UHGV virus genome: UHGV-0374465
Strand: one strand, 5' to 3'
DNA length: 43,821 nucleotides
Source: a virus
Under the pieces are notes generated by a model. It saw only the letters and a list, made by a program, of their open reading frames with translations. It searched no databases and was not told the origin of the DNA. Within the stretch, counting starts at the first letter, position 1, and each line of letters begins with the position of its first letter. Positions 15,362-35,417 of this stretch are shown piece after piece. The translations under genes and the position numbers were made by a program.

Positions 15362-15652
15362 TCACTCCTTAATTTCTTTTATGAATTTAATTACAATTAC
15401 TCTAGAATCATAATCAATAGTTAATTCATATTGTGCAAAATAATTTGTATCTCCTGAAACAACATCAGCTACTACCATATGATGGTGCCCTTCTTCTCCA
15501 AAAGTTTTATAGCTCTCCATAAGGTTTAATACCCCATATTCTTTACCATCAATAATAAACTCAGGAGCATATGTTTTATTTTCAATACGCTTATATTCCA
15601 CGTTTTCAATAGGTATTGATGTATATCCCTCTTCCTGATAATATAAAATCAT
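15362..15652 (-). CDS. Hypothetical protein
   Basis: 96 aa with an RBS, between the 60 aa ORF and terS. Confidence 0.5.
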   Translation of the reverse strand: MILYYQEEGYTSIPIENVEYKRIENKTYAPEFIIDGKEYGVLNLMESYKTFGEEGHHHMVVADVVSGDTNYFAQYELTIDYDSRVIVIKFIKEIKE

Positions 15653-15654
15653 GT

Positions 15655-15837
15655 TTAATCCTCCTTTGGAGCTTCTGTAATTTCAAAGTGACGATTGCGT
15701 CCGCCTAATTTTGTTTTAATATCCTTAAAGTAGCCACGCTTTTTATTATAAAAATCATCTGCTGCAAATTGTGATTTGAATTTGCGTGTCTGCCCAGTTG
15801 ATAAATCTTTTACGTACACTGGTTTTGGTGCAGGCAT
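15655..15837 (-). CDS. Hypothetical basic protein
   Basis: 60 aa, GGGAGG RBS. Confidence 0.45.
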   Translation of the reverse strand: MPAPKPVYVKDLSTGQTRKFKSQFAADDFYNKKRGYFKDIKTKLGGRNRHFEITEAPKED

Positions 15838-15894
15838 TGTATAACCTCCCTTATTTTATTTTTGAGTTAACGGCTAACTCCCTTACATAGCTTT

Positions 15895-15905
15895 ATTATA
15901 TCATA
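15895..15905 (-). promoter_or_regulatory. Extended -10 element TATGATATAAT (variant of the late motif)
   Basis: Minus strand reads tttaTATGATATAATaaagc, upstream of the 60aa-96aa-terS cluster. Confidence 0.35.
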
Positions 15906-16084
15906 TAAAAAGAACCCTGTGTAAAGAAACCAGGGTTCAATCGTGTTTACTAAGGGAACAATCGTATAAGAGAAATAACATACTATATATAGTGTGATTC
16001 CTTTATTTTCAACACAAGAAACCAGGTTTTAATCACGTTTACGAGGGGAAAATGGCATTTTTCAAAGTTCATTTTTAGAATTTC

Positions 16085-16186
16085 GTGCGAAGAAGAGGGG
16101 GCAGCGATTAATTCGTTATAAAAAGGTAGGCGGGTAAAAACATTTTGGGTCTCCCTAAAAATGTTTTTGTCTGCGCGCTTGTTGAT
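16085..16186. other. GC-rich non-coding segment downstream of HNH. Candidate cos/packaging site.
   Basis: gaagaagagggggcagcg...ggtaggcggg...gtctgcgcgcttg, unusually GC-rich for this genome. Adjacent ~35 bp direct repeats at 15923-15957 and 16015-16050. Confidence 0.25.
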
Positions 16187-16579
16187 TTAGCGCTGTTCCC
16201 TACCTCTATTTTTCCAACTGTAGTTATGTTCTTCCTTGTTATGACACTCGTAACAGATTGACTCTAAGTTATTTAAATCAAGTCTATGTTTCCATCCGTT
16301 TGGACTTCTTAATTCTATCTTATGGTGAACCATGTTAGCGTTGGTGTACTTGCCTTGTGCTAAGCATACCTCGCAGAGTGGTTGCTCCATTAGCTTGGCT
16401 TTACGTGCGTTCCTCCATTGGGTTGAATGATAGAAGTTACTGTACTTCTTGTTGTCTTCGTTGTATCTCACGTGCTTATTGTATTGGCTATTGTTGTACC
16501 CTTGATGTGCGTCACAGTAGCGCTCAGGTAGCGTGACATAGTTGCGACATGAAGCCACTGCACACTTACGTTGTGGCAT
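16187..16579 (-). CDS. HNH endonuclease (packaging-associated)
   Basis: C-x4-C ... HHKIELRSPNGW ... CYECHNKEEH. RBS-supported start at 16579 (MPQRKCAVASC). Classic HNH-TerS-TerL arrangement. Confidence 0.85.
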   Translation of the reverse strand: MPQRKCAVASCRNYVTLPERYCDAHQGYNNSQYNKHVRYNEDNKKYSNFYHSTQWRNARKAKLMEQPLCEVCLAQGKYTNANMVHHKIELRSPNGWKHRLDLNNLESICYECHNKEEHNYSWKNRGREQR

Positions 16580-16622
16580 TGTGTTACTCCTTTCTACTAT
16601 TGTATAGAAGAAAAGACTACTA

Positions 16623-16781
16623 TTATTTAGTAGTCTTTTTTGCTTTAACAACAATCTTGTCTGTTGGTTGTTCTACTTTGACTGAGTCAGGTAGCTTTGC
16701 TGGCTGATGTTTGGCACAGTATTGTGCTGGTAGCTTAACTGTTTCGTTACACCCTTCGTGATTGCAGTACATATATGGCAA
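16623..16781 (-). CDS. Small Cys-rich protein (52 aa) resembling the N-terminal zinc-ribbon motif of the HNH protein
   Basis: GGGAGGTG RBS + TTG. YCNHEGCNETVKLPAQYCAKHQ versus HNH CAVASCRNYVTLPERYCDAHQ. Confidence 0.35.
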   Translation of the reverse strand: MPYMYCNHEGCNETVKLPAQYCAKHQPAKLPDSVKVEQPTDKIVVKAKKTTK

Positions 16782-16813
16782 GTGGAACACCTCCCTTCAG
16801 TATTAAATAAGTA

Positions 16814-16981
16814 CTAGAAATTATAGTCTTGTTTCTTACGTACAATCATGTCATGACTCTTTACTATCTTAATGGCTTCTTCAAGTGTTGGTTCTTTATT
16901 GGATTTATATGCCTCTAGTTTACGATACTCGTTTAATAAGTCTGTTTTATTTAGTGCTAGTAGTTGTTTGTCTGTCTTCAT
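16814..16981 (-). CDS. Hypothetical protein (55 aa)
   Basis: GGAGG RBS + 9 nt + ATG. Confidence 0.4.
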   Translation of the reverse strand: MKTDKQLLALNKTDLLNEYRKLEAYKSNKEPTLEEAIKIVKSHDMIVRKKQDYNF

Positions 16982-17135
16982 TGTTTAAGTCCTCCAATAA
17001 ACCAGTAATATAATAAGTAACTTCTTCTAAATTATCTGTTGTAAATCCTTGTTGATTATTTTCGCTTTCATAGTATTCAACAAAATATTTGTTTTTCTCA
17101 GTGTCTAAATTAATATTGATATTGATCTTTATCAT
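16947..17135 (-). CDS. Hypothetical acidic protein
   Basis: 62 aa, AGGAGG RBS, ATGA overlap with the upstream gene. Confidence 0.5.
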   Translation of the reverse strand: MIKINININLDTEKNKYFVEYYESENNQQGFTTDNLEEVTYYITGLLEDLNNEDRQTTTSTK

Positions 17136-17320
17136 TTACGATTACCTCCTAATAACCAGCTCCATACGATAACCAGTTGTGCAATGGCAAAAGCCCAATC
17201 ACCTTGCTGGAATAATTGATATGGTAACTTCATACCTAAATATATAGCAATATACCCAAAACCAATGATAATCAAAAGACTTAATATGATTGATAAAATA
17301 GTTGTCAATATGTCTTTCAT
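17132..17320 (-). CDS. Small membrane protein. First gene of the leftward unit.
   Basis: 62 aa with two predicted TM segments. GGAGGAG RBS. Confidence 0.55.
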   Translation of the reverse strand: MKDILTTILSIILSLLIIIGFGYIAIYLGMKLPYQLFQQGDWAFAIAQLVIVWSWLLGGNRK

Positions 17321-17346
17321 CGTATCTCCTCCTTCTCTTTGTTTCT

Positions 17347-17357
17347 ATTATATCATA
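17347..17357 (-). promoter_or_regulatory. Extended -10 promoter TATGATATAAT for the leftward (late) unit
   Basis: Minus strand reads cttatcTATGATATAATagaaac, ~25 nt upstream of the first minus-strand gene. Confidence 0.4.
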
Positions 17358-17389
17358 GATAAGGGATACTGTGTTGGTTAGGTAAACCA

Positions 17390-17735
17390 GTTATCAGTGA
17401 CAAAAAGTCAGTCTAAAATCGTCATTTTGTCACTAAATAGATTGTTTTTGTCATCGTTTTGTCACTGATTTTGACACCTGAAATCGCTGTAAGCCTTGAT
17501 ATATCTACATTCTTATTTATATAATGACAAAATGACAAAATATTATATATATATTAATTAAAAAATAAAGTTACTACATTATAATGTAGTAACATAGATA
17601 TATGGGCTTAAATAAATTATTTTTTGTCATTGTGTCATTTTGATAAAACTGGTCTATTAAACGTTGATATAATAGGATTCTTTCTGTAAAAATTAGTGAC
17701 AAAATTAATGTCACTGTTTTGTCACTAATTGAACT
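17390..17735. promoter_or_regulatory. Control region with >=10 TGTCA(C/T) boxes, including five TTTTGTCACT-type sites arranged as inverted pairs flanking each divergent promoter, plus an AT-rich core
   Basis: agtgacaaaa at 17396 and ttttgtcact at 17425. ttgtcat, ttgtcac and ttgacac at 17448-17478. tgacaaaatgacaaaa at 17524. ttgtcattgtgtcat at 17624. agtgacaaaa at 17696 and ttttgtcact at 17717. Confidence 0.5.
17570..17593. repeat. Perfect 24 bp palindrome GTTACTACATTATAATGTAGTAAC centred on TATAAT
   Basis: Exact reverse-complement symmetry, inside the AT-rich core of the control region. Confidence 0.6.
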
Positions 17736-17741
17736 AAATAG

Positions 17742-17770
17742 TTGACAGTCACGTCAATACATGATAAACT
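17742..17770 (+). promoter_or_regulatory. Early promoter E0 (TTGACA-17-TAAACT)
   Basis: Canonical sigma-A spacing, 30 nt upstream of the first early gene. Confidence 0.6.
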
Positions 17771-17800
17771 TAGATCATACAACAAAAGGAGGACTAAACA

Positions 17801-18088
17801 TTGGAAGTAACATTTACTGGCACACCACACGAAATCATGCAACAATATGATCACTGGCTAAAAACACTTGACCTTGAACAAACGCTACTATATAATAGAA
17901 TCATAATCACAGGTAATAAAACAGACAAAGTACCATTACCAGAGTATAAAAAAGTAATTCAACAAATTGCAATTAATAATGGAGGAGGAATAAAAAATAT
18001 TGACAATGAAATCATGAGTTGCTACAATGTAGAAAAGAAAAGATTTAGCAATGGTTTTTATATCACAGGAATCAAAATAAAACAATAA
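17801..18088 (+). CDS. Hypothetical early protein
   Basis: 95 aa, AAGGAGG RBS, TTG start. Confidence 0.55.
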   Translation: MEVTFTGTPHEIMQQYDHWLKTLDLEQTLLYNRIIITGNKTDKVPLPEYKKVIQQIAINNGGGIKNIDNEIMSCYNVEKKRFSNGFYITGIKIKQ

Positions 18089-18094
18089 AACCAG

Positions 18095-18123
18095 TTGACA
18101 AGGGTTTCTAAGCATGCTATACT
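18095..18123 (+). promoter_or_regulatory. Early promoter E1 (TTGACA-17-TATACT) with conserved leader cttagttcataagataagaggagg
   Basis: Canonical hexamers. The leader is identical to E2. Confidence 0.65.
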
Positions 18124-18154
18124 TAGTTCATAAGATAAGAGGAGGAATAAAACA

Positions 18155-18439
18155 ATGACAAACACAGTATCAGTTTTAATCAAATCAAGCAAGAAAGAAA
18201 CTCAATATAGATACGGTAAAGAACTTATCAATATTGATCGCAGAACATTACAGCAAATTAAGGGTACAACAAGTCAAGTTTTCGTAGCCAGCGAACCTCA
18301 ACGATTGCTTAAAGACGTTAGTGAGTTCAGAGACGGTCTAACATATTCTCATACAGAAAGTATTAAAATAAACCCTCAATTTATTTGGTACGTTGATGAC
18401 ATGCCAAATATGAGAAATTATGGCAATCTTTTCAAATAA
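18155..18439 (+). CDS. Hypothetical early protein
   Basis: 94 aa, GAGGAGG RBS. Confidence 0.55.
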   Translation: MTNTVSVLIKSSKKETQYRYGKELINIDRRTLQQIKGTTSQVFVASEPQRLLKDVSEFRDGLTYSHTESIKINPQFIWYVDDMPNMRNYGNLFK

Positions 18440-18443
18440 AAAG

Positions 18444-18472
18444 TTGACACAGATCAACAAGCATGCTATACT
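18444..18472 (+). promoter_or_regulatory. Early promoter E2 (TTGACA-17-TATACT). Its 35 nt leader is identical to E1.
   Basis: agcatgctatacttagttcataagataagaggagg repeated verbatim. Confidence 0.65.
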
Positions 18473-18503
18473 TAGTTCATAAGATAAGAGGAGGAAAACA
18501 ACA

Positions 18504-20286: not shown

Positions 20287-20598
20287 ATGACAATATTAAA
20301 ACGGTACAAATGTATAAAATCAAATGATGAACAAAGATTTGCTGTGGGAGAAATATATCCATTATATAATAACGGTTATAAAAATTACGTTGTAGCGAAT
20401 AATAATGTGAAATGGTATGAAAAAGAATTTCCAATTATTAAACGAGACTATGGTATTGAATTTGAGGAGGTAAAAGAAAAAATATTTGATCTAAACAAAC
20501 TGACAACCACACAGTTGAGAGAATACGTTGATCTACTTGAAAATAAAGAGAAAGCAGAACGCGCACTAAATAAGTTCATTGAAAGGATGACTAAATAA
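20287..20598 (+). CDS. Hypothetical protein. Paralog of the previous gene.
   Basis: KRYKCIKSNDEQRFAVGEIYPL... versus FKECQTYICTKSNKSWFTPGEEYPV... Confidence 0.5.
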   Translation: MTILKRYKCIKSNDEQRFAVGEIYPLYNNGYKNYVVANNNVKWYEKEFPIIKRDYGIEFEEVKEKIFDLNKLTTTQLREYVDLLENKEKAERALNKFIERMTK

Positions 20599-20777
20599 TG
20601 TTTAAAGTATTAGTGACAAAATACAATGCTGGAGAAGGTATAGAAGTAACTGAATTTAATTACATTGATAAGTATTACTTTGAAGATGACTATGTAATTT
20701 TATATGATACTACCAATAAAGTGAAAACCTATATTCAAAAAGACCAAGTATTAGAATTTGAGGTGCATTATGAATAA
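20598..20777 (+). CDS. Hypothetical protein (59 aa)
   Basis: TAATG overlap with the upstream gene. Open frame MFKVLVTKYNAGEG... Confidence 0.35.
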   Translation: MFKVLVTKYNAGEGIEVTEFNYIDKYYFEDDYVILYDTTNKVKTYIQKDQVLEFEVHYE

Positions 20778-21023: not shown

Positions 21024-22610
21024 ATGAATGAACTAACAAAAATAGATTATTCAGCACCACTTGAGGAATTACTACCAGTTTCAAATAAAAACTTTCCAAG
21101 TGAGGAGTTTGTGGACTTCAATTCAGAATTAGGAAGGATGTATTACGGAGGTAAAGACGGTACACAAGCCAAATTTGAGATTCAACAGGAATTATTTATT
21201 GATAAATTCAACCAGCTAGCCTATGTGTACGCTCACCCTAACTTAAACGCTCCATATGTATACAACGCAGACACGCGCATCTGGTCTGAGGTAAATCTAG
21301 GTAGTTACAAATATTCAGATTGGTACTTTGAAAATATTCTAGCGCCAAAATTTACACCACAATTCAGAAATCCAGAGTTTGGGAATGAAATTCGTAAAGA
21401 AATGAAGAAACTAGCTCCTGAGTTAGCGAATCGCTCCATGACACGTGGCGAACATGCACCATTAGGTGATAACCCCAACCCAAACATTATTGCGTTTGAA
21501 AACGGCACATACGACTTTAGAACGAATGAAATTCGTGAGACAAGATTAGAAGATTATCATACGTTACAATTGCCATATCCGTTAATTAAAACAGATGAGA
21601 CAGATGAATTACTCGCAAAACAATGGATTGATTATTTACTTAAAGACCAAGCTCAGACATTGTATGAGTATATTGGTTACATGTATTATAGAGAGTACAA
21701 ATATCAATCAATTCTATATTTATTAGGTAATGGATCAAATGGTAAATCATATGTAGGTGGATTTATCATGAACAAATTAATTGGTTTCAAAAATAGCTCA
21801 GCAGTTGGTCTAGACAGCTTAGCAGATAAGAATAATCGTTTTGATAAAGCTTCACTACACCACAAATTATTGAACTTTGAAGCGGATTCAAGTGCCAATT
21901 TTGTGAAGGGTACGGAGACATTGAAAAAGCTTTCAGGAGGTCTTGACGCTGTTCATGCTGAGAAAAAAGGCAAAGACGCTTTTAGCTTCACCAACTATGC
22001 AAAACTAATGTTCTCAATGAATGAACTACCTGCATTTAATGATCGTACAAATGGTTGGTATAGACGTATTTTGATTTTAAATTTCAACACTAATCTTGAC
22101 ACACCAGAGGCACGTCAACGCATTAATGAGTTCAATAAACAACGTGAAGAACGTGAGTCAAAAGAGCAACTTGGTAAATTTGCCTGGTTCTGTATTCAAC
22201 AATTCAAAAAGATTTTAGACACAGGTGCAAATGGTGAAAACCCATTCACAGAAACAGAAGACATGATTGAATTTAAGAAAGCATATATTGAATCCAACGA
22301 CCCATCTAAAGAGTTCTTGAGTGAAGTACCTGTGATTGTGGAAGATGAGGAAGGCAGTGTTAACCTAACCCTATTGAAGAATATCTTTAATGTGTACACA
22401 AAAGAAAACAATATCAATAAGTCAATGAACTGGCGAACGATGAAAGAATTACTACTGAAGCAAGGATTTGAAGAAAAACGTACAAGTAAAGCTCGTATAT
22501 TAACTGGTCTCAAAATTGCACGTAATGGAGACAACGAGTCAATTAAACCATATTTAATGAACGCGTTAGCAGGAACAGAGTATGTAAACATTTTCAATGA
22601 TATACAATAG
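21024..22610 (+). CDS. DNA primase/helicase (P4/D5-type, C-terminal SF3 NTPase)
   Basis: 528 aa. Walker A LLGNGSNGKS. Overall resembles the phage/plasmid primase P4 C-terminal domain and D5-like proteins. Confidence 0.7.
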   Translation: MNELTKIDYSAPLEELLPVSNKNFPSEEFVDFNSELGRMYYGGKDGTQAKFEIQQELFIDKFNQLAYVYAHPNLNAPYVYNADTRIWSEVNLGSYKYSDWYFENILAPKFTPQFRNPEFGNEIRKEMKKLAPELANRSMTRGEHAPLGDNPNPNIIAFENGTYDFRTNEIRETRLEDYHTLQLPYPLIKTDETDELLAKQWIDYLLKDQAQTLYEYIGYMYYREYKYQSILYLLGNGSNGKSYVGGFIMNKLIGFKNSSAVGLDSLADKNNRFDKASLHHKLLNFEADSSANFVKGTETLKKLSGGLDAVHAEKKGKDAFSFTNYAKLMFSMNELPAFNDRTNGWYRRILILNFNTNLDTPEARQRINEFNKQREERESKEQLGKFAWFCIQQFKKILDTGANGENPFTETEDMIEFKKAYIESNDPSKEFLSEVPVIVEDEEGSVNLTLLKNIFNVYTKENNINKSMNWRTMKELLLKQGFEEKRTSKARILTGLKIARNGDNESIKPYLMNALAGTEYVNIFNDIQ

Positions 22611-26105: not shown

Positions 26106-26849
26106 ATGAAACAACTAAGACTAAAGAAAAATGGTAAAGCACCACTAGTTGCTGGAGCGTTTGATGGAGAATCAGAAGATTTGATTCAAAAATGGATTAA
26201 AGAGGGAGGTAATATCGGAATTCTTACTGGAACAAAAAGTGGAATCATAGTGGTTGACTTAGACCGTCATGGTGATTCAGATGGGGTTGACTCATTAAAG
26301 AATCTACTTGAAGCATATGATATTGAGTTACCAATAACTAAAGTAGTTAAGACACCCAATAACGGATATCATTATTATTTTAAGTTGCCTTCAAAATATT
26401 ATGATATTCAACTGAAACAGAATGTAAATGGTTATGAAGGTATTGATTTTCAGAGTAGCGGTCGTTTCGTTGTAGTACCACCCAGTCAAATTGATGGTAG
26501 ACCATATGAGGTAATTCGTGACGTTGCTGAGTTACCAGAGTTACCAGAGAAGTTACTTGAGATTTTAGTGGATAAAACGATTACTAAGAAAAACAAGAAG
26601 CGAGAAAGAAAATGGACGGCAACCCTATTAGGTGATATAATTGCAGGTAGTGGTGAAGGCGGAAGAAATATCTGGCTAACCACTCAAATTGGTAAATTAT
26701 TTGCTACAGGACTGAACCATGATGAGGTGCGTGTATGGTCTCTATACGTTAATCAGATTGGCTGCAATCCACCATTATCAGAGGATGAAGTACTGCAAAC
26801 ATATGAGAGCGTTCGTAAGCGCGAAATAAGAAGAATGGAGAATAACTGA
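26106..26849 (+). CDS. Bifunctional primase-polymerase (PrimPol N-terminal domain + PriCT-like C-terminus)
   Basis: VVDLDRH (DxD), GYHYYF, VVVPPS motifs. Confidence 0.7.
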   Translation: MKQLRLKKNGKAPLVAGAFDGESEDLIQKWIKEGGNIGILTGTKSGIIVVDLDRHGDSDGVDSLKNLLEAYDIELPITKVVKTPNNGYHYYFKLPSKYYDIQLKQNVNGYEGIDFQSSGRFVVVPPSQIDGRPYEVIRDVAELPELPEKLLEILVDKTITKKNKKRERKWTATLLGDIIAGSGEGGRNIWLTTQIGKLFATGLNHDEVRVWSLYVNQIGCNPPLSEDEVLQTYESVRKREIRRMENN

Positions 26850-33137: not shown

Positions 33138-35417
33138 ATGAAAAACATTGCAGAATTTAAAGGTGCTGAAAAACTGGCATCTAAACTGTTAGAAATATTC
33201 GCAGCACTTGCTGGAAATGGGAAAAGTTTTGATCCAATAGTAGAAGGAGTTCACCAAGTTGTAGTGATTAAAGCAGAGGAACGTTTATCTGCTAAAGGTA
33301 AAGAAATGAAAGAAATTAAAGTACGCAGCACAAATGATGGACGTGACGCTACTTTTTATATTATGAAGTTTCGTAAAAAAGACTGGAAAACTTGGGAAAA
33401 TATTGAAGTAGGTCAACAACTGATGATTACTCTGAAATACAATAATGGTTTTCCAAATGTAGCCATTAATCAAAAAGGAGCAGTTATTGATAATTTACCT
33501 GAGAAACCACACGGGGCACTAACACATCAAACAATCTATATTTATGATATTGAAGTATTTAAAAAAGATAATTTATTTGTTTTCAGAGATTACTTCACTA
33601 AAGAATGGACAGTTATTCATAATGATTTAGACGCGTTACGTAAGTTCTATCTTGCGAATAGAGATTCATTGTTTGTTGGTTATAATTCACACTCATATGA
33701 TTCCAATGTCATGCGTGCCTATTTACAAGGTAAAAACCCATTTCATGTGTCAAAAGCGATCATTGAAAGTGATGACAGAGCGTTAGCATATAAAATGTTT
33801 GATACTAAGAAAACACCACTGTTTGGAATGGATTTATATCAAGACAATAGAGGTTTTAGTTTGAAAGAACATAGCGCTTTCATGGGTATTAATATTAAAG
33901 AAACTGAGGTAGACTTTGATTTAGATAGAGAACTAACAGAAGAAGAACAAGTCTTGAATGAGTTGTACTGTAAAAATGATGTGTTAGCTACGGAAAAACG
34001 TTTTGAACAAAATATAGGCATGTTAGTAGCTAAGGCTGCAATTGCACTATATTTTGATTTAGATAAAATGGCACTGTCAATGACTAACGCAAATTTAACA
34101 GCTGAACTATTGGGGGCTGAAAAGACACCTGATAGAGGTGATGAGTTAGATAAGTATGAACTACCAGAAGGATTTAAAATTGAATCAGAGACCATCCGTC
34201 AGGCGTTTATGACAGATGAATTTGAAGCTAATGATAAAGGACATGCTAGTATTTCATTAGATGTACCACGTAGAGACGTAACAGAGGTTTTAGGGGTAGG
34301 TGGGATACACGGTGCTAAGGAGTCATTTATTCATGTAGGTAACTTCCATGCACGTGACGTAGGTTCTCTATATCCAAACACAATGGTATTGTTTGACTAC
34401 TTATCAAGAAACATTCCAGAAGATAAACGGCATATCTATCAAATGTTATTAGATGAACGCATGGAAGCCAAGTATTCTAATAAAGAATTTACTGAAATTA
34501 AAGGCGTTCAAATTCCAACAAAGTTGCTAATTAATGGTTATAAACTACCTTTAAACACGAAATATGGTGCAATGGGAGCTGAGTTTAATAAACTATATGA
34601 TCCACGCATGAGATTATTAGTGTGTATCACTGGACAGATGGCAATGTGGGACTTACTAGAAAAGATTGAAGACCATGCTACTATTATTCAATCAAACACA
34701 GACGCACACTACTATATTCCATTCAGTGAAGAAGATGAAAAAGCTATTGATGAGATTGCAAATGATTGGATGAAACGAACAGGATACACCTTAGATGATG
34801 ATCCATTTAAAGCTATTTTCCAGAAGGACGTTAATAATTATTTAGCTGTTACATCAGACGGTAAAGTGAAGTTTAAGGGTGCCATAGGACTAACTAATGG
34901 TTTGAAAGTATCTAAAGCAATTGTGTCAAATGCTTTTATTAACTACGTGGTTGCTGGTAAAGATTATAAAGATTTTATCAATGAATGTGACGAACTACGT
35001 CAATTCCAAATGATTACTAAAACTGGCTGGACATTTGATGATACTATTGTACGTGATAGTGAAGGTAATGAAATGAAAGCACAAAAAGTAAACCGCACAT
35101 TTGCAATAAAAGACCCTAATAAAGCTGTTGAAATATTCAAGGTGAAACGTGGAGCTGTAATTGAAGAGGAAGGCACAACTATTGTTGGTGATGATTCTTA
35201 TACTAAAGGTTTACCTAATGCACCTGAGTATTATGCCATTGACAATGACGCAATTGGTGAAGGATGGATAACTATTGATGATATTGATAAAGAATACTAT
35301 ATAAACCAGGTGGAAGATTTACTTGTAATGTGGTTTGGTACAAATTGGAAAGAGCGTATTGAGCAGGCGCATAGCCAGATAGATGAATTTCCAGAAGTTA
35401 AAAATTATATTGACTAA
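33138..35417 (+). CDS. Family B DNA polymerase with a 3'-5' exonuclease domain
   Basis: Exo I YDIEV, Exo II YNSHSYDSNVM, Exo III YCKNDV. Pol motif A DVGSLYPNTM, motif B KLPLNTKYG, and a QSNTDAHY motif-C-like segment. Confidence 0.8.
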   Translation: MKNIAEFKGAEKLASKLLEIFAALAGNGKSFDPIVEGVHQVVVIKAEERLSAKGKEMKEIKVRSTNDGRDATFYIMKFRKKDWKTWENIEVGQQLMITLKYNNGFPNVAINQKGAVIDNLPEKPHGALTHQTIYIYDIEVFKKDNLFVFRDYFTKEWTVIHNDLDALRKFYLANRDSLFVGYNSHSYDSNVMRAYLQGKNPFHVSKAIIESDDRALAYKMFDTKKTPLFGMDLYQDNRGFSLKEHSAFMGINIKETEVDFDLDRELTEEEQVLNELYCKNDVLATEKRFEQNIGMLVAKAAIALYFDLDKMALSMTNANLTAELLGAEKTPDRGDELDKYELPEGFKIESETIRQAFMTDEFEANDKGHASISLDVPRRDVTEVLGVGGIHGAKESFIHVGNFHARDVGSLYPNTMVLFDYLSRNIPEDKRHIYQMLLDERMEAKYSNKEFTEIKGVQIPTKLLINGYKLPLNTKYGAMGAEFNKLYDPRMRLLVCITGQMAMWDLLEKIEDHATIIQSNTDAHYYIPFSEEDEKAIDEIANDWMKRTGYTLDDDPFKAIFQKDVNNYLAVTSDGKVKFKGAIGLTNGLKVSKAIVSNAFINYVVAGKDYKDFINECDELRQFQMITKTGWTFDDTIVRDSEGNEMKAQKVNRTFAIKDPNKAVEIFKVKRGAVIEEEGTTIVGDDSYTKGLPNAPEYYAIDNDAIGEGWITIDDIDKEYYINQVEDLLVMWFGTNWKERIEQAHSQIDEFPEVKNYID

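Follow-up and report, generated by a model that had tools for sequence, protein, structure and literature searches.

The intergenic gap and its setting

The virus genome UHGV-0374465 was analysed as a single stretch of 43,821 nucleotides (the window), in which a non-coding gap of 480 bp (17321-17800) separates two divergent gene blocks. This gap carries a dense array of short repeats (iterons) around a core consisting only of A and T, and is probably a phage DNA replication origin of the type used by Staphylococcus aureus pathogenicity islands (SaPIs), as judged from its sequence and from comparison with related phages. The rightward block beyond the gap contains ~45 early and replication genes, which include those for a superfamily 3 (SF3) helicase and a primase. 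On the leftward side, the first 1.2 kb holds five small genes and an HNH gene, followed by a probable cos site at 16098-16106, with terS located only beyond it. The first-pass annotation of this DNA had described the leftward block as a structural/late unit, a description that applies from terS onwards and does not fit the first 1.2 kb, and the structural genes can be reached from the gap only across cos.

From its sequence relationships, the source phage is an Enterococcus faecium siphophage and kin of IME-EFm5, IME-EFm1 and KEN20. A BLAST search of the region against phage genomes matched 127 records, nearly all of them Enterococcus phages, with the E. faecium siphophages KEN20/KEN18, SSBHU, GEC_Ef_S_9, KEN22, IME-EFm5 and IME-EFm1 as nearest relatives and the E. 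faecalis Efquatrovirus phages as remoter matches. The gap is AT-rich (26-28% GC), and an Rfam scan of positions 15500-18500 gave no match.

An iteron array with a common dyad centre

Eleven TGTCA[CT] boxes were counted on the two strands within 17397-17725, where at least 10 had been claimed from the sequence alone, and these align to the 10-bp consensus TTTTGTCAYT, in which the TGTCA core is invariant. Six further, degenerate GTCA cores are present in the gap. The exact sequence TTTTGTCACT occurs six times in the window, with five of these copies within 17396-17726 (L1, L2, L4, R3 and R5 in Table 1). The five near-identical boxes of the first-pass annotation were thus all recovered, one of which (R3) had been placed one base too high, at 17696-17705. 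The probability of finding five of the six exact copies inside a given 331-bp span is 1.5e-10, and that of finding 8 of the 14 one-mismatch copies inside such a span is 3e-14. The heptamer TGACAAA is ~78-fold enriched in the gap when compared with the rest of the window. The boxes are also better conserved than the DNA between them, as the box columns of seven related gaps of the window type were 98.0% conserved versus 87.9% for the spacers, a value reached by none of 5000 random placements, while the iteron copy number differs among these relatives.

The array is symmetrical. An outer pair of segments (17457-76/17685-704) and an inner pair (17523-53/17609-39) share a common dyad centre at ~17581, which is also the centre of a perfect palindrome, and the tandem iterons L5/L6 (minus strand) and R1/R2 (plus strand) are mirror images about this position. 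The iterons fall into two oppositely oriented sets, and each flank of the A/T core holds two or more of them. The sixth exact copy of TTTTGTCACT is solitary and located at 20612-20621 on the minus strand, within the open reading frame (ORF) 20598-20777 and ~400 bp upstream of the helicase gene, where it may be a chance occurrence or a remote auxiliary site.

The A/T core, the palindrome and promoter-like sites

The centre of the gap had been described as extremely AT-rich. Within the window, the A/T-only run at 17537-17569 is the longest present (33 bp, with a runner-up of 19 bp), and 17513-17572 is the least stable 60-bp duplex, with a value of -56.4 against a mean of -74.4 (standard deviation 4.5), four standard deviations off. 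The perfect 24-bp palindrome reported for the centre was likewise found as described. When read leftward, on the minus strand, the palindrome gives a 10-bp stem and a 4-nt loop followed by TTTATTTTTT (17560-17569), a terminator-like arrangement, and it may possibly function as a minus-strand terminator; no leftward promoter was identified upstream of it. The phages dArtagnan and BUCT630 have an unrelated palindrome at the same place, which is also followed by a T-run on the minus strand. Elsewhere among the relatives the position is occupied by sequence variants of the same palindrome or by a different one, with no clean compensatory changes, and a conserved RNA hairpin was ruled out because the variants are not compensatory. 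The ACTACA/TGTAGT core that makes up both arms of the window palindrome was also seen in the AACTACACTAA/TGTAGT iterons of the relative L079 (9200-9520), the helicase of which has a C-terminal domain 63% identical to that of the window.

Both promoters proposed earlier to face outward from the gap are present. The leftward promoter has an extended -10 element TGATATAAT that is kept in every E. faecium-type relative examined, and the rightward early promoter, with its TTGACA at 17742-17747, conforms to a TTGACA-17-TAnAnT pattern kept in all relatives. Two further promoter-like sites lie inside the gap. The first (17496-17525) is kept in A-type relatives and would, from its position, drive transcription into the AT-rich core, with the iterons L5/L6 overlapping its -10 and start region. 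The second is a rightward copy of TGATATAAT (17665-17673) that is kept in A1-type relatives and was left unscored as a promoter by the promoter scan; together with the leftward element it is part of an 11-mer inverted pair (17345-17355 and 17665-17675). At the edges of the array, L1 begins 20 bp past where the leftward promoter has its -35, and R5 ends 15 bp before the early TTGACA. Overlap of an operator type between boxes and promoter hexamers is limited to the internal site at 17496-17525, with degenerate cores also located in the spacer of the early promoter.

A helicase related to SaPI Rep proteins

The helicase gene is located 3.3 kb downstream of the iteron array, and its product matched PriRep5 of SaPI5 (PDB 7OLA/7OM0) at the sequence level with an E-value of 3.7e-10 (phmmer). 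In a Foldseek search with the predicted structure, 7OLA/7OM0 were the top matches (E-value 5e-15, 400-444 columns), and the PriRep5 chains aligned over 403-444 columns include those in which the C-terminal domain was built, with an identity between the two proteins of only about 15-25%. The full-length AlphaFold 2 model of the helicase has helices at residues 448-461 and 470-479 followed by a beta hairpin at 483-498, with a predicted local distance difference test score (pLDDT) of 65-88 in this part. These elements resemble a winged helix, and we propose that the C-terminal winged helix predicted in this way (~residues 438-498) may read the iterons. Homologues of the helicase carry the source label 'P4 family primase'.

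Table 1. Features of the intergenic gap and the associated replication genes in the window
Feature	Position	Strand	Remarks
Leftward extended -10 element, TGATATAAT	17347..17355	-	Just upstream of the ribosome-binding site and start of gene 17132-17320(-)
Iteron L1, AGTGACAAAA	17396..17405	-	TTTTGTCACT on the minus strand
Iteron L2, TTTTGTCACT	17425..17434	+	
Iteron L3, TTTTGTCATC	17446..17455	+	
Iteron L4, TTTTGTCACT	17457..17466	+	
Internal promoter-like site, TTGATA-18-TATAAT	17496..17525	+	11/12 matches (promoter scan)
Tandem iterons L5 + L6, AATGACAAAATGACAAAA	17523..17540	-	Adjoin the AT-rich core, A-tract toward the core
A/T-only core, proposed DNA unwinding element	17537..17569		33 bp
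Perfect 24-bp palindrome, GTTACTACATTATAATGTAGTAAC	17570..17593		Dyad centre of the whole repeat array, beside the A/T run
Tandem iterons R1 + R2, TTTTGTCATTGTGTCATT	17622..17639	+	Mirror of L5/L6
Rightward extended -10 element, TGATATAAT	17665..17673	+	Within the gap; without a good -35; read from the sequence
Iteron R3, AGTGACAAAA	17695..17704	-	
Iteron R4, TAATGTCACT	17706..17715	+	
Iteron R5, TTTTGTCACT	17717..17726	+	Extra tandem copy in relative L017
Rightward early promoter, TTGACA-17-TAAACT, TG-extended	17742..17770	+	31 bp upstream of the first early gene (17801)
SF3 (D5-like) self-loading helicase, 528 aa, proposed initiator	21024..22610	+	Pfam D5_N + DUF5906
Prim-Pol + PriCT_1 primase, helicase partner as in SaPI pri/rep	26106..26849	+	Pfam

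Other proteins were searched for features that could connect them with the repeats. Scans of ~45 ORFs with Pfam and PHROG at permissive thresholds recognised no helix-turn-helix (HTH), repressor, Cro or integrase family, in agreement with the first-pass annotation, which had noted the lack of a repressor, an integrase or a cI/Cro-like gene. The same ORFs of the window contained no Phage_rep_O, DnaB or DnaB-loader family, and no family was detectable for the first early protein. The helicase is the one protein among the ORFs scanned that has a plausible sequence-specific DNA-binding domain, as suggested by its sequence matches and model. The first early gene was considered as a source of the box-binding protein and rejected, as its presence does not follow the repeat class; the label 'XRE family regulator' attached to its homologue in phage Bp29 has no Pfam support, and this homologue has only 29% similarity, in the N-terminal part, to the first early protein of the window. 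A 759-aa protein (33138-35417) is a DNA polymerase according to the annotation of relatives, with no significant Pfam match.

Gaps of related phages

The set of homologous gaps came from 13 phages in GenBank and ~60 loci of IMG/VR or metagenomes; the contigs of L074 and L075 (helicases 57-58% identical) end short of the gap. All of these gaps measure 400-600 bp and separate the same two divergent blocks, with the outward promoters conserved and an AT-rich centre flanked on both sides by short repeats in both orientations. The sequence of the repeats is lineage-specific. Gaps of the window type have TGTCAY boxes, with variants rich in TGTCAT or AGACAT/CGTCAY, the gap of IME-EFm1 has GTACACAAAA or GGTAC repeats, the gaps of E. 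faecalis phages have GTTCTY, GTAACRCTT, GTTATGCTT or GTTCCACTT, and one metagenome relative has AACTACACTAA repeats.

In KEN20 (L001, 6322-6833) the genes flanking the gap are 98% identical to those of the window, and the gap itself is ~75% identical along 71% of its extent. Its central part thus appears to be exchanged by recombination independently of the flanks and the helicase, since the flanks of KEN20 match and its gap is a different variant.

Two further sequence elements were observed in these gaps. A conserved stem-loop-like element CCTTACTCTCCCAAGGG, often preceded by AATCGCTGTATC, is present in one or two copies in most related gaps of both E. faecium and E. faecalis phages (for instance in L012, at 6500-6540 of L077 and at 9270-9300 of L079). 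The window type retains only AATCGCTGTAAGCCTTG (17481-17497), and CTTACTCTC occurs nowhere in the window. In addition, three E. faecalis relatives (L050 at 1190-1650, L055 and L064) have an extra family of 7-8 copies of TTGTCTACACTTTT on top of their GTTCTY iterons. This family was found only in phages whose first early gene encodes a 181-aa product (phrog_26045, no assigned function), and the 181-aa protein and TTGTCTACACTTTT may represent a second pair of DNA-binding protein and site.

The repeat class varies with the helicase C-terminus

When the repeats of ~45 loci, which represent few independent events, were compared with the helicases encoded by the same phages, five classes of the helicase C-terminal domain matched five repeat classes, a relationship that is a correlation only. 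Helicases of C-terminal class 1 were accompanied by 8-13 TGTCAY boxes and at most one GTTCTY (zero in all loci but one), with locus L041 having only two TGTCAY in its gap. Class 2 was found with 13 GTACAC-type boxes, and class 3 (14 loci) with 8-12 GTTCTY, at most two TGTCAY (zero in 13/14) and at most one GTAACRCTT (zero in 13/14). Class 4 had 11-15 GTAACRCTT and zero GTTCTY, and class 5 had 13 RCACTT. A further variant of the C-terminal domain accompanies GTTATGCTT. Helicases of the window class are 96-98% identical in all phages with GTCA-core boxes, and in IME-EFm1, where the repeats differ, the helicase is only 29% identical and its gene adjoins the gap.

A natural domain swap distinguishes classes 3 and 4 of the E. 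faecalis phages, as residues 1-430 of the helicase are 96-99% identical between the two and the last ~95 residues only 56-57%. Within ~9 kb on either side of the helicase gene, the only clean separators of the two classes were clusters of shadow ORFs on the reverse strand, which lie over the segment coding for the helicase C-terminus. The association of repeats and helicase is not one of simple linkage, because this segment is located 3-5 kb from the gap. A one-to-one correspondence of class 3 with GTCTACAC was also considered and failed, with only three class-3 loci carrying GTCTACAC: the repeat common to all class-3 gaps is GTTCTY, and GTCTACAC is an additional family linked to the 181-aa gene.

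A putative replication origin

Four lines of evidence support the reading of the gap as a SaPI-type replication origin embedded between divergent promoters: the iteron/AT core/iteron layout, the location of the least stable DNA of the window at its centre, the presence of a helicase of the SaPI Rep type, and the co-variation of the repeats with the helicase C-terminus. In such an origin, the winged helix at the C-terminus of the helicase would bind the iterons, the AT-rich core would melt, and helicase hexamers would load on both sides with no dedicated loader. Priming would be by the Prim-Pol primase, and the phage DNA polymerase encoded at 33138-35417 would extend bidirectionally. Host RNA polymerase would read both outward promoters, and the two internal promoter-like sites may either assist in origin opening or be silenced when the helicase binds. 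Cumulative GC skew is lowest at 17-18 kb, in agreement with an origin at this position.

Several points weigh against this interpretation. The GC skew is not independent evidence, since the switch in skew coincides with the switch in transcription direction, and all support for an origin is comparative. The proposed origin is 3.3 kb upstream of the helicase gene, and not directly downstream of it as in SaPIs. The winged helix was assigned from a single AlphaFold model, with a pLDDT of about 65-88 at the C-terminus, and the C-terminal domain modelled alone had a pLDDT of 40.7 and was unusable. The co-variation is drawn from few independent events, with some five or six classes and a single clean domain swap. 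Furthermore, helicase class 1 spans several flavours of gap (TGTCAC-rich, TGTCAT-rich and degenerate AGACAT/CGTCAY), and a subset of the class-3 phages (three from E. faecalis) has a second repeat family, TGTCTACACTTTT, which is unexplained by the helicase. Finally, the palindrome is left unexplained.

If the gap is indeed an origin, it would provide a concrete and testable origin together with its cognate initiator domain for a group of Enterococcus phages under development for therapy of vancomycin-resistant enterococci. The repeat classes, of which there are at least five or six with their C-terminal variants, and the domain swap represent a data set on how the specificity of winged-helix initiators changes, and the variation in repeats and helicases may explain co-replication or exclusion among closely related phages.

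The first-pass annotation had viewed the gap as an operator system, a replication origin or both. The origin is the part of this proposal that is supported here, while the operator part found no positive backing, with no repressor family recognised in the ~45 ORFs scanned and the strong boxes positioned 15-20 bp outside the -35 elements. A combination of the two can be envisaged, with the iterons adjoining both outward promoters and covering an internal one. The origin could then double as an early/late switch, with the helicase bound to the iterons also controlling transcription in a lytic phage that has no repressor, the palindrome and the extra repeats of relatives serving as sites for a second factor, and the gap behaving as an exchangeable 'origin cassette' that recombines independently of the helicase. 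Binding to the iterons would in that case shut off or redirect transcription, tying late expression to the onset of replication. We consider this extended role rather unlikely.

The nature of the binding factor, for which both a phage protein and a host factor had been left in play, can now be narrowed to a specific candidate in the C-terminal domain of the helicase. Alternatively, the gap could be an origin in which the iterons are read by another phage protein, either a small early protein or the Prim-Pol/PriCT primase, which then recruits the helicase. The TGTCTACACTTTT family and the unique 181-aa first early gene (phrog_26045) suggest that other DNA-binding specificities may act in the gap, and class 1 of the helicase accepts quite different box flavours. 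No other protein follows the main repeat classes, however, and the Reps of this family in SaPIs themselves bind the iterons, through a C-terminal winged helix (PMC9371898). A separate reader of the iterons is therefore judged unlikely.

The same boxes could be operators at which an early protein of unrecognised fold represses or activates the outward promoters, without any origin being present. The gap and its edges hold at least four promoter-like sites, one of which (17496-17525) is overlapped by L5/L6 at its -10 and start region, degenerate GTCA cores lie within the spacer of the early promoter, and many small early proteins have no assigned function. This explanation is decidedly doubtful, as the ~45 ORFs encode no HTH, repressor or Cro-like family (the 'XRE' label in Bp29 being unsupported by Pfam), the first early gene does not follow the repeat class, and the best boxes are outside the -35/-10 hexamers of both outward promoters. 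It also leaves the extreme A/T core unexplained, and between classes 3 and 4 the helicase C-terminus is the sole coding segment that follows the repeats without exception.

Phage origins and promoters often use host factors, and the boxes could be sites for a host protein recruited by the phage, such as a global regulator or a DnaA-like factor. The box is not similar to the DnaA box (TTATCCACA). At the same place in the genome, E. faecium phages have TGTCAY or GTACACAAAA, and E. faecalis phages have GTTCTY, GTAACRCTT or GTTCCACTT; a host factor is very improbable because phages of one host species carry different boxes, which a fixed host specificity cannot explain. Lastly, although short repeats are common in DNA of 26-28% GC, chance clustering or functionless low-complexity repeats are refuted by the clustering statistics and enrichment given above, by the conservation of boxes above spacers, and by the recurrence of the same architecture with different boxes in ~45 relatives.

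Comparison with known origins

The replication origins of SaPIs were reportedly the subject of work by Ubeda et al. in 2007. SaPI Reps are self-loading initiators that bind iterons with the winged helix at their C-terminus and melt the AT-rich region in the centre (Qiao et al. 2022, PMC9371898). A SaPI origin is located directly downstream of rep and has six to twelve iterons of 5-6 bp, with at least two in opposite directions to either side of its AT-rich centre, and the iteron sequence varies by element and fits the Rep variant (PMC9371898). The window has several features in common with this arrangement: a D5-like SF3 helicase homologous to Rep and a Prim-Pol partner encoded in the same element, 11 iterons, a number that fits the six-to-twelve rule, with six degenerate cores in addition, a 33-bp A/T core flanked by oppositely directed iterons with outer sets beyond, and a repeat class that goes with the helicase C-terminal variant. 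It differs from SaPIs in that the putative origin occupies a gap between divergent promoters, 3.3 kb upstream of the helicase gene, with no iteron cluster after the gene, and that the iterons have a 10-bp consensus, of which 5-6 bp are an invariant core, where those of SaPIs measure 5-6 bp. The window additionally has a perfect palindrome in the centre and promoter-like sites inside the gap, and it derives from a lytic cos phage and not from a satellite.

An origin of the same kind has been proposed independently, and in silico only, for the Efquatrovirus phage Abitsa; that report describes a PriRep5-homologous helicase, seven 10-bp iterons around an AT-rich region near a terminus, and an argument from GC skew (PMC13517437, Viruses, August 2026). 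Abitsa belongs to the same phage lineage and has the same genome layout as the window phage, whereas its host is E. faecalis, and no co-variation analysis is reported there (PMC13517437). The helicases of Efquatrovirus-type E. faecalis phages such as LM99 are only about 31-32% identical to that of the window, a comparison that did not include the Abitsa helicase. The origin proposed here would represent another case of the Abitsa type, with a different helicase class and a different iteron.

The alpha protein of phage P4 is a primase-helicase of the D5/P4 type, in which a C-terminal winged helix binds short repeats in the origin. It differs from the system in the window in being a single fused protein, and P4 needs a further repeat cluster, crr, at a distance of 4.5 kb; no counterpart of crr was seen in the window, which has just the stray exact copy at 20612-20621. 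In phage lambda, the order of elements in ori is repeats, AT-rich segment and palindrome, with a possible involvement of nearby transcription, and the window has the same order of these elements. The lambda ori differs in being located inside the O gene, with direct repeats on one side only and a dependence on O/P and host DnaB, whereas the putative origin of the window is intergenic. Finally, Lactococcus phage c2 resembles the window phage in being a siphophage with cos ends and a lytic cycle whose host is Gram-positive. Its origin is situated between divergent early and late promoters, as is the putative origin of the window, and an early promoter is located inside the minimal ori. The c2 origin is not known to depend on an SF3 helicase or on an iteron/AT-core/iteron layout.

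Other features of the region

The probable cos site was located using the record of IME-EFm1, the ends of which map to window positions 16097 and 16107 and leave the 9-nt sequence GGGGCAGCG between them. Apart from one mismatch, this sequence agrees with the 3′ cohesive end of 9 nt that was determined experimentally (GGGTCAGCG), and the flanking sequences do not differ. As the ends of IME-EFm1 mark cos at 16098-16106, the gap is separated by 1.4 kb from where the virion DNA physically ends, and a cos or pac site was ruled out as an explanation of the gap since cos maps 1.4 kb away.

The 8-mer ACTGGTYT occurs 19 times in the window versus 3.7 expected, a number reached by no shuffle, with examples at 17384-17391 (minus strand), 17648-17655 (plus strand) and 18088-18095 (minus strand). 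Comparison of its contexts in the window showed no larger consensus, and in relatives the 8-mer often adjoins the early promoter (TTGACACTGGTTTCT, AAACCAGTTGACA).

The GenBank records of KEN20 (L001), KEN22 (L004), KEN21 (L009) and IME-EFm5 (L010) have short ORFs of 31-60 aa annotated inside the non-coding gap, and give unsupported product names to neighbouring small early genes. These names are 'HNH endonuclease', applied to the first early protein (95 aa), as well as 'gamma-glutamyl kinase' and 'antibiotic ABC transporter ATP-binding protein'. The small ORFs called inside the gap in several records are spurious, and their annotation can be corrected accordingly.

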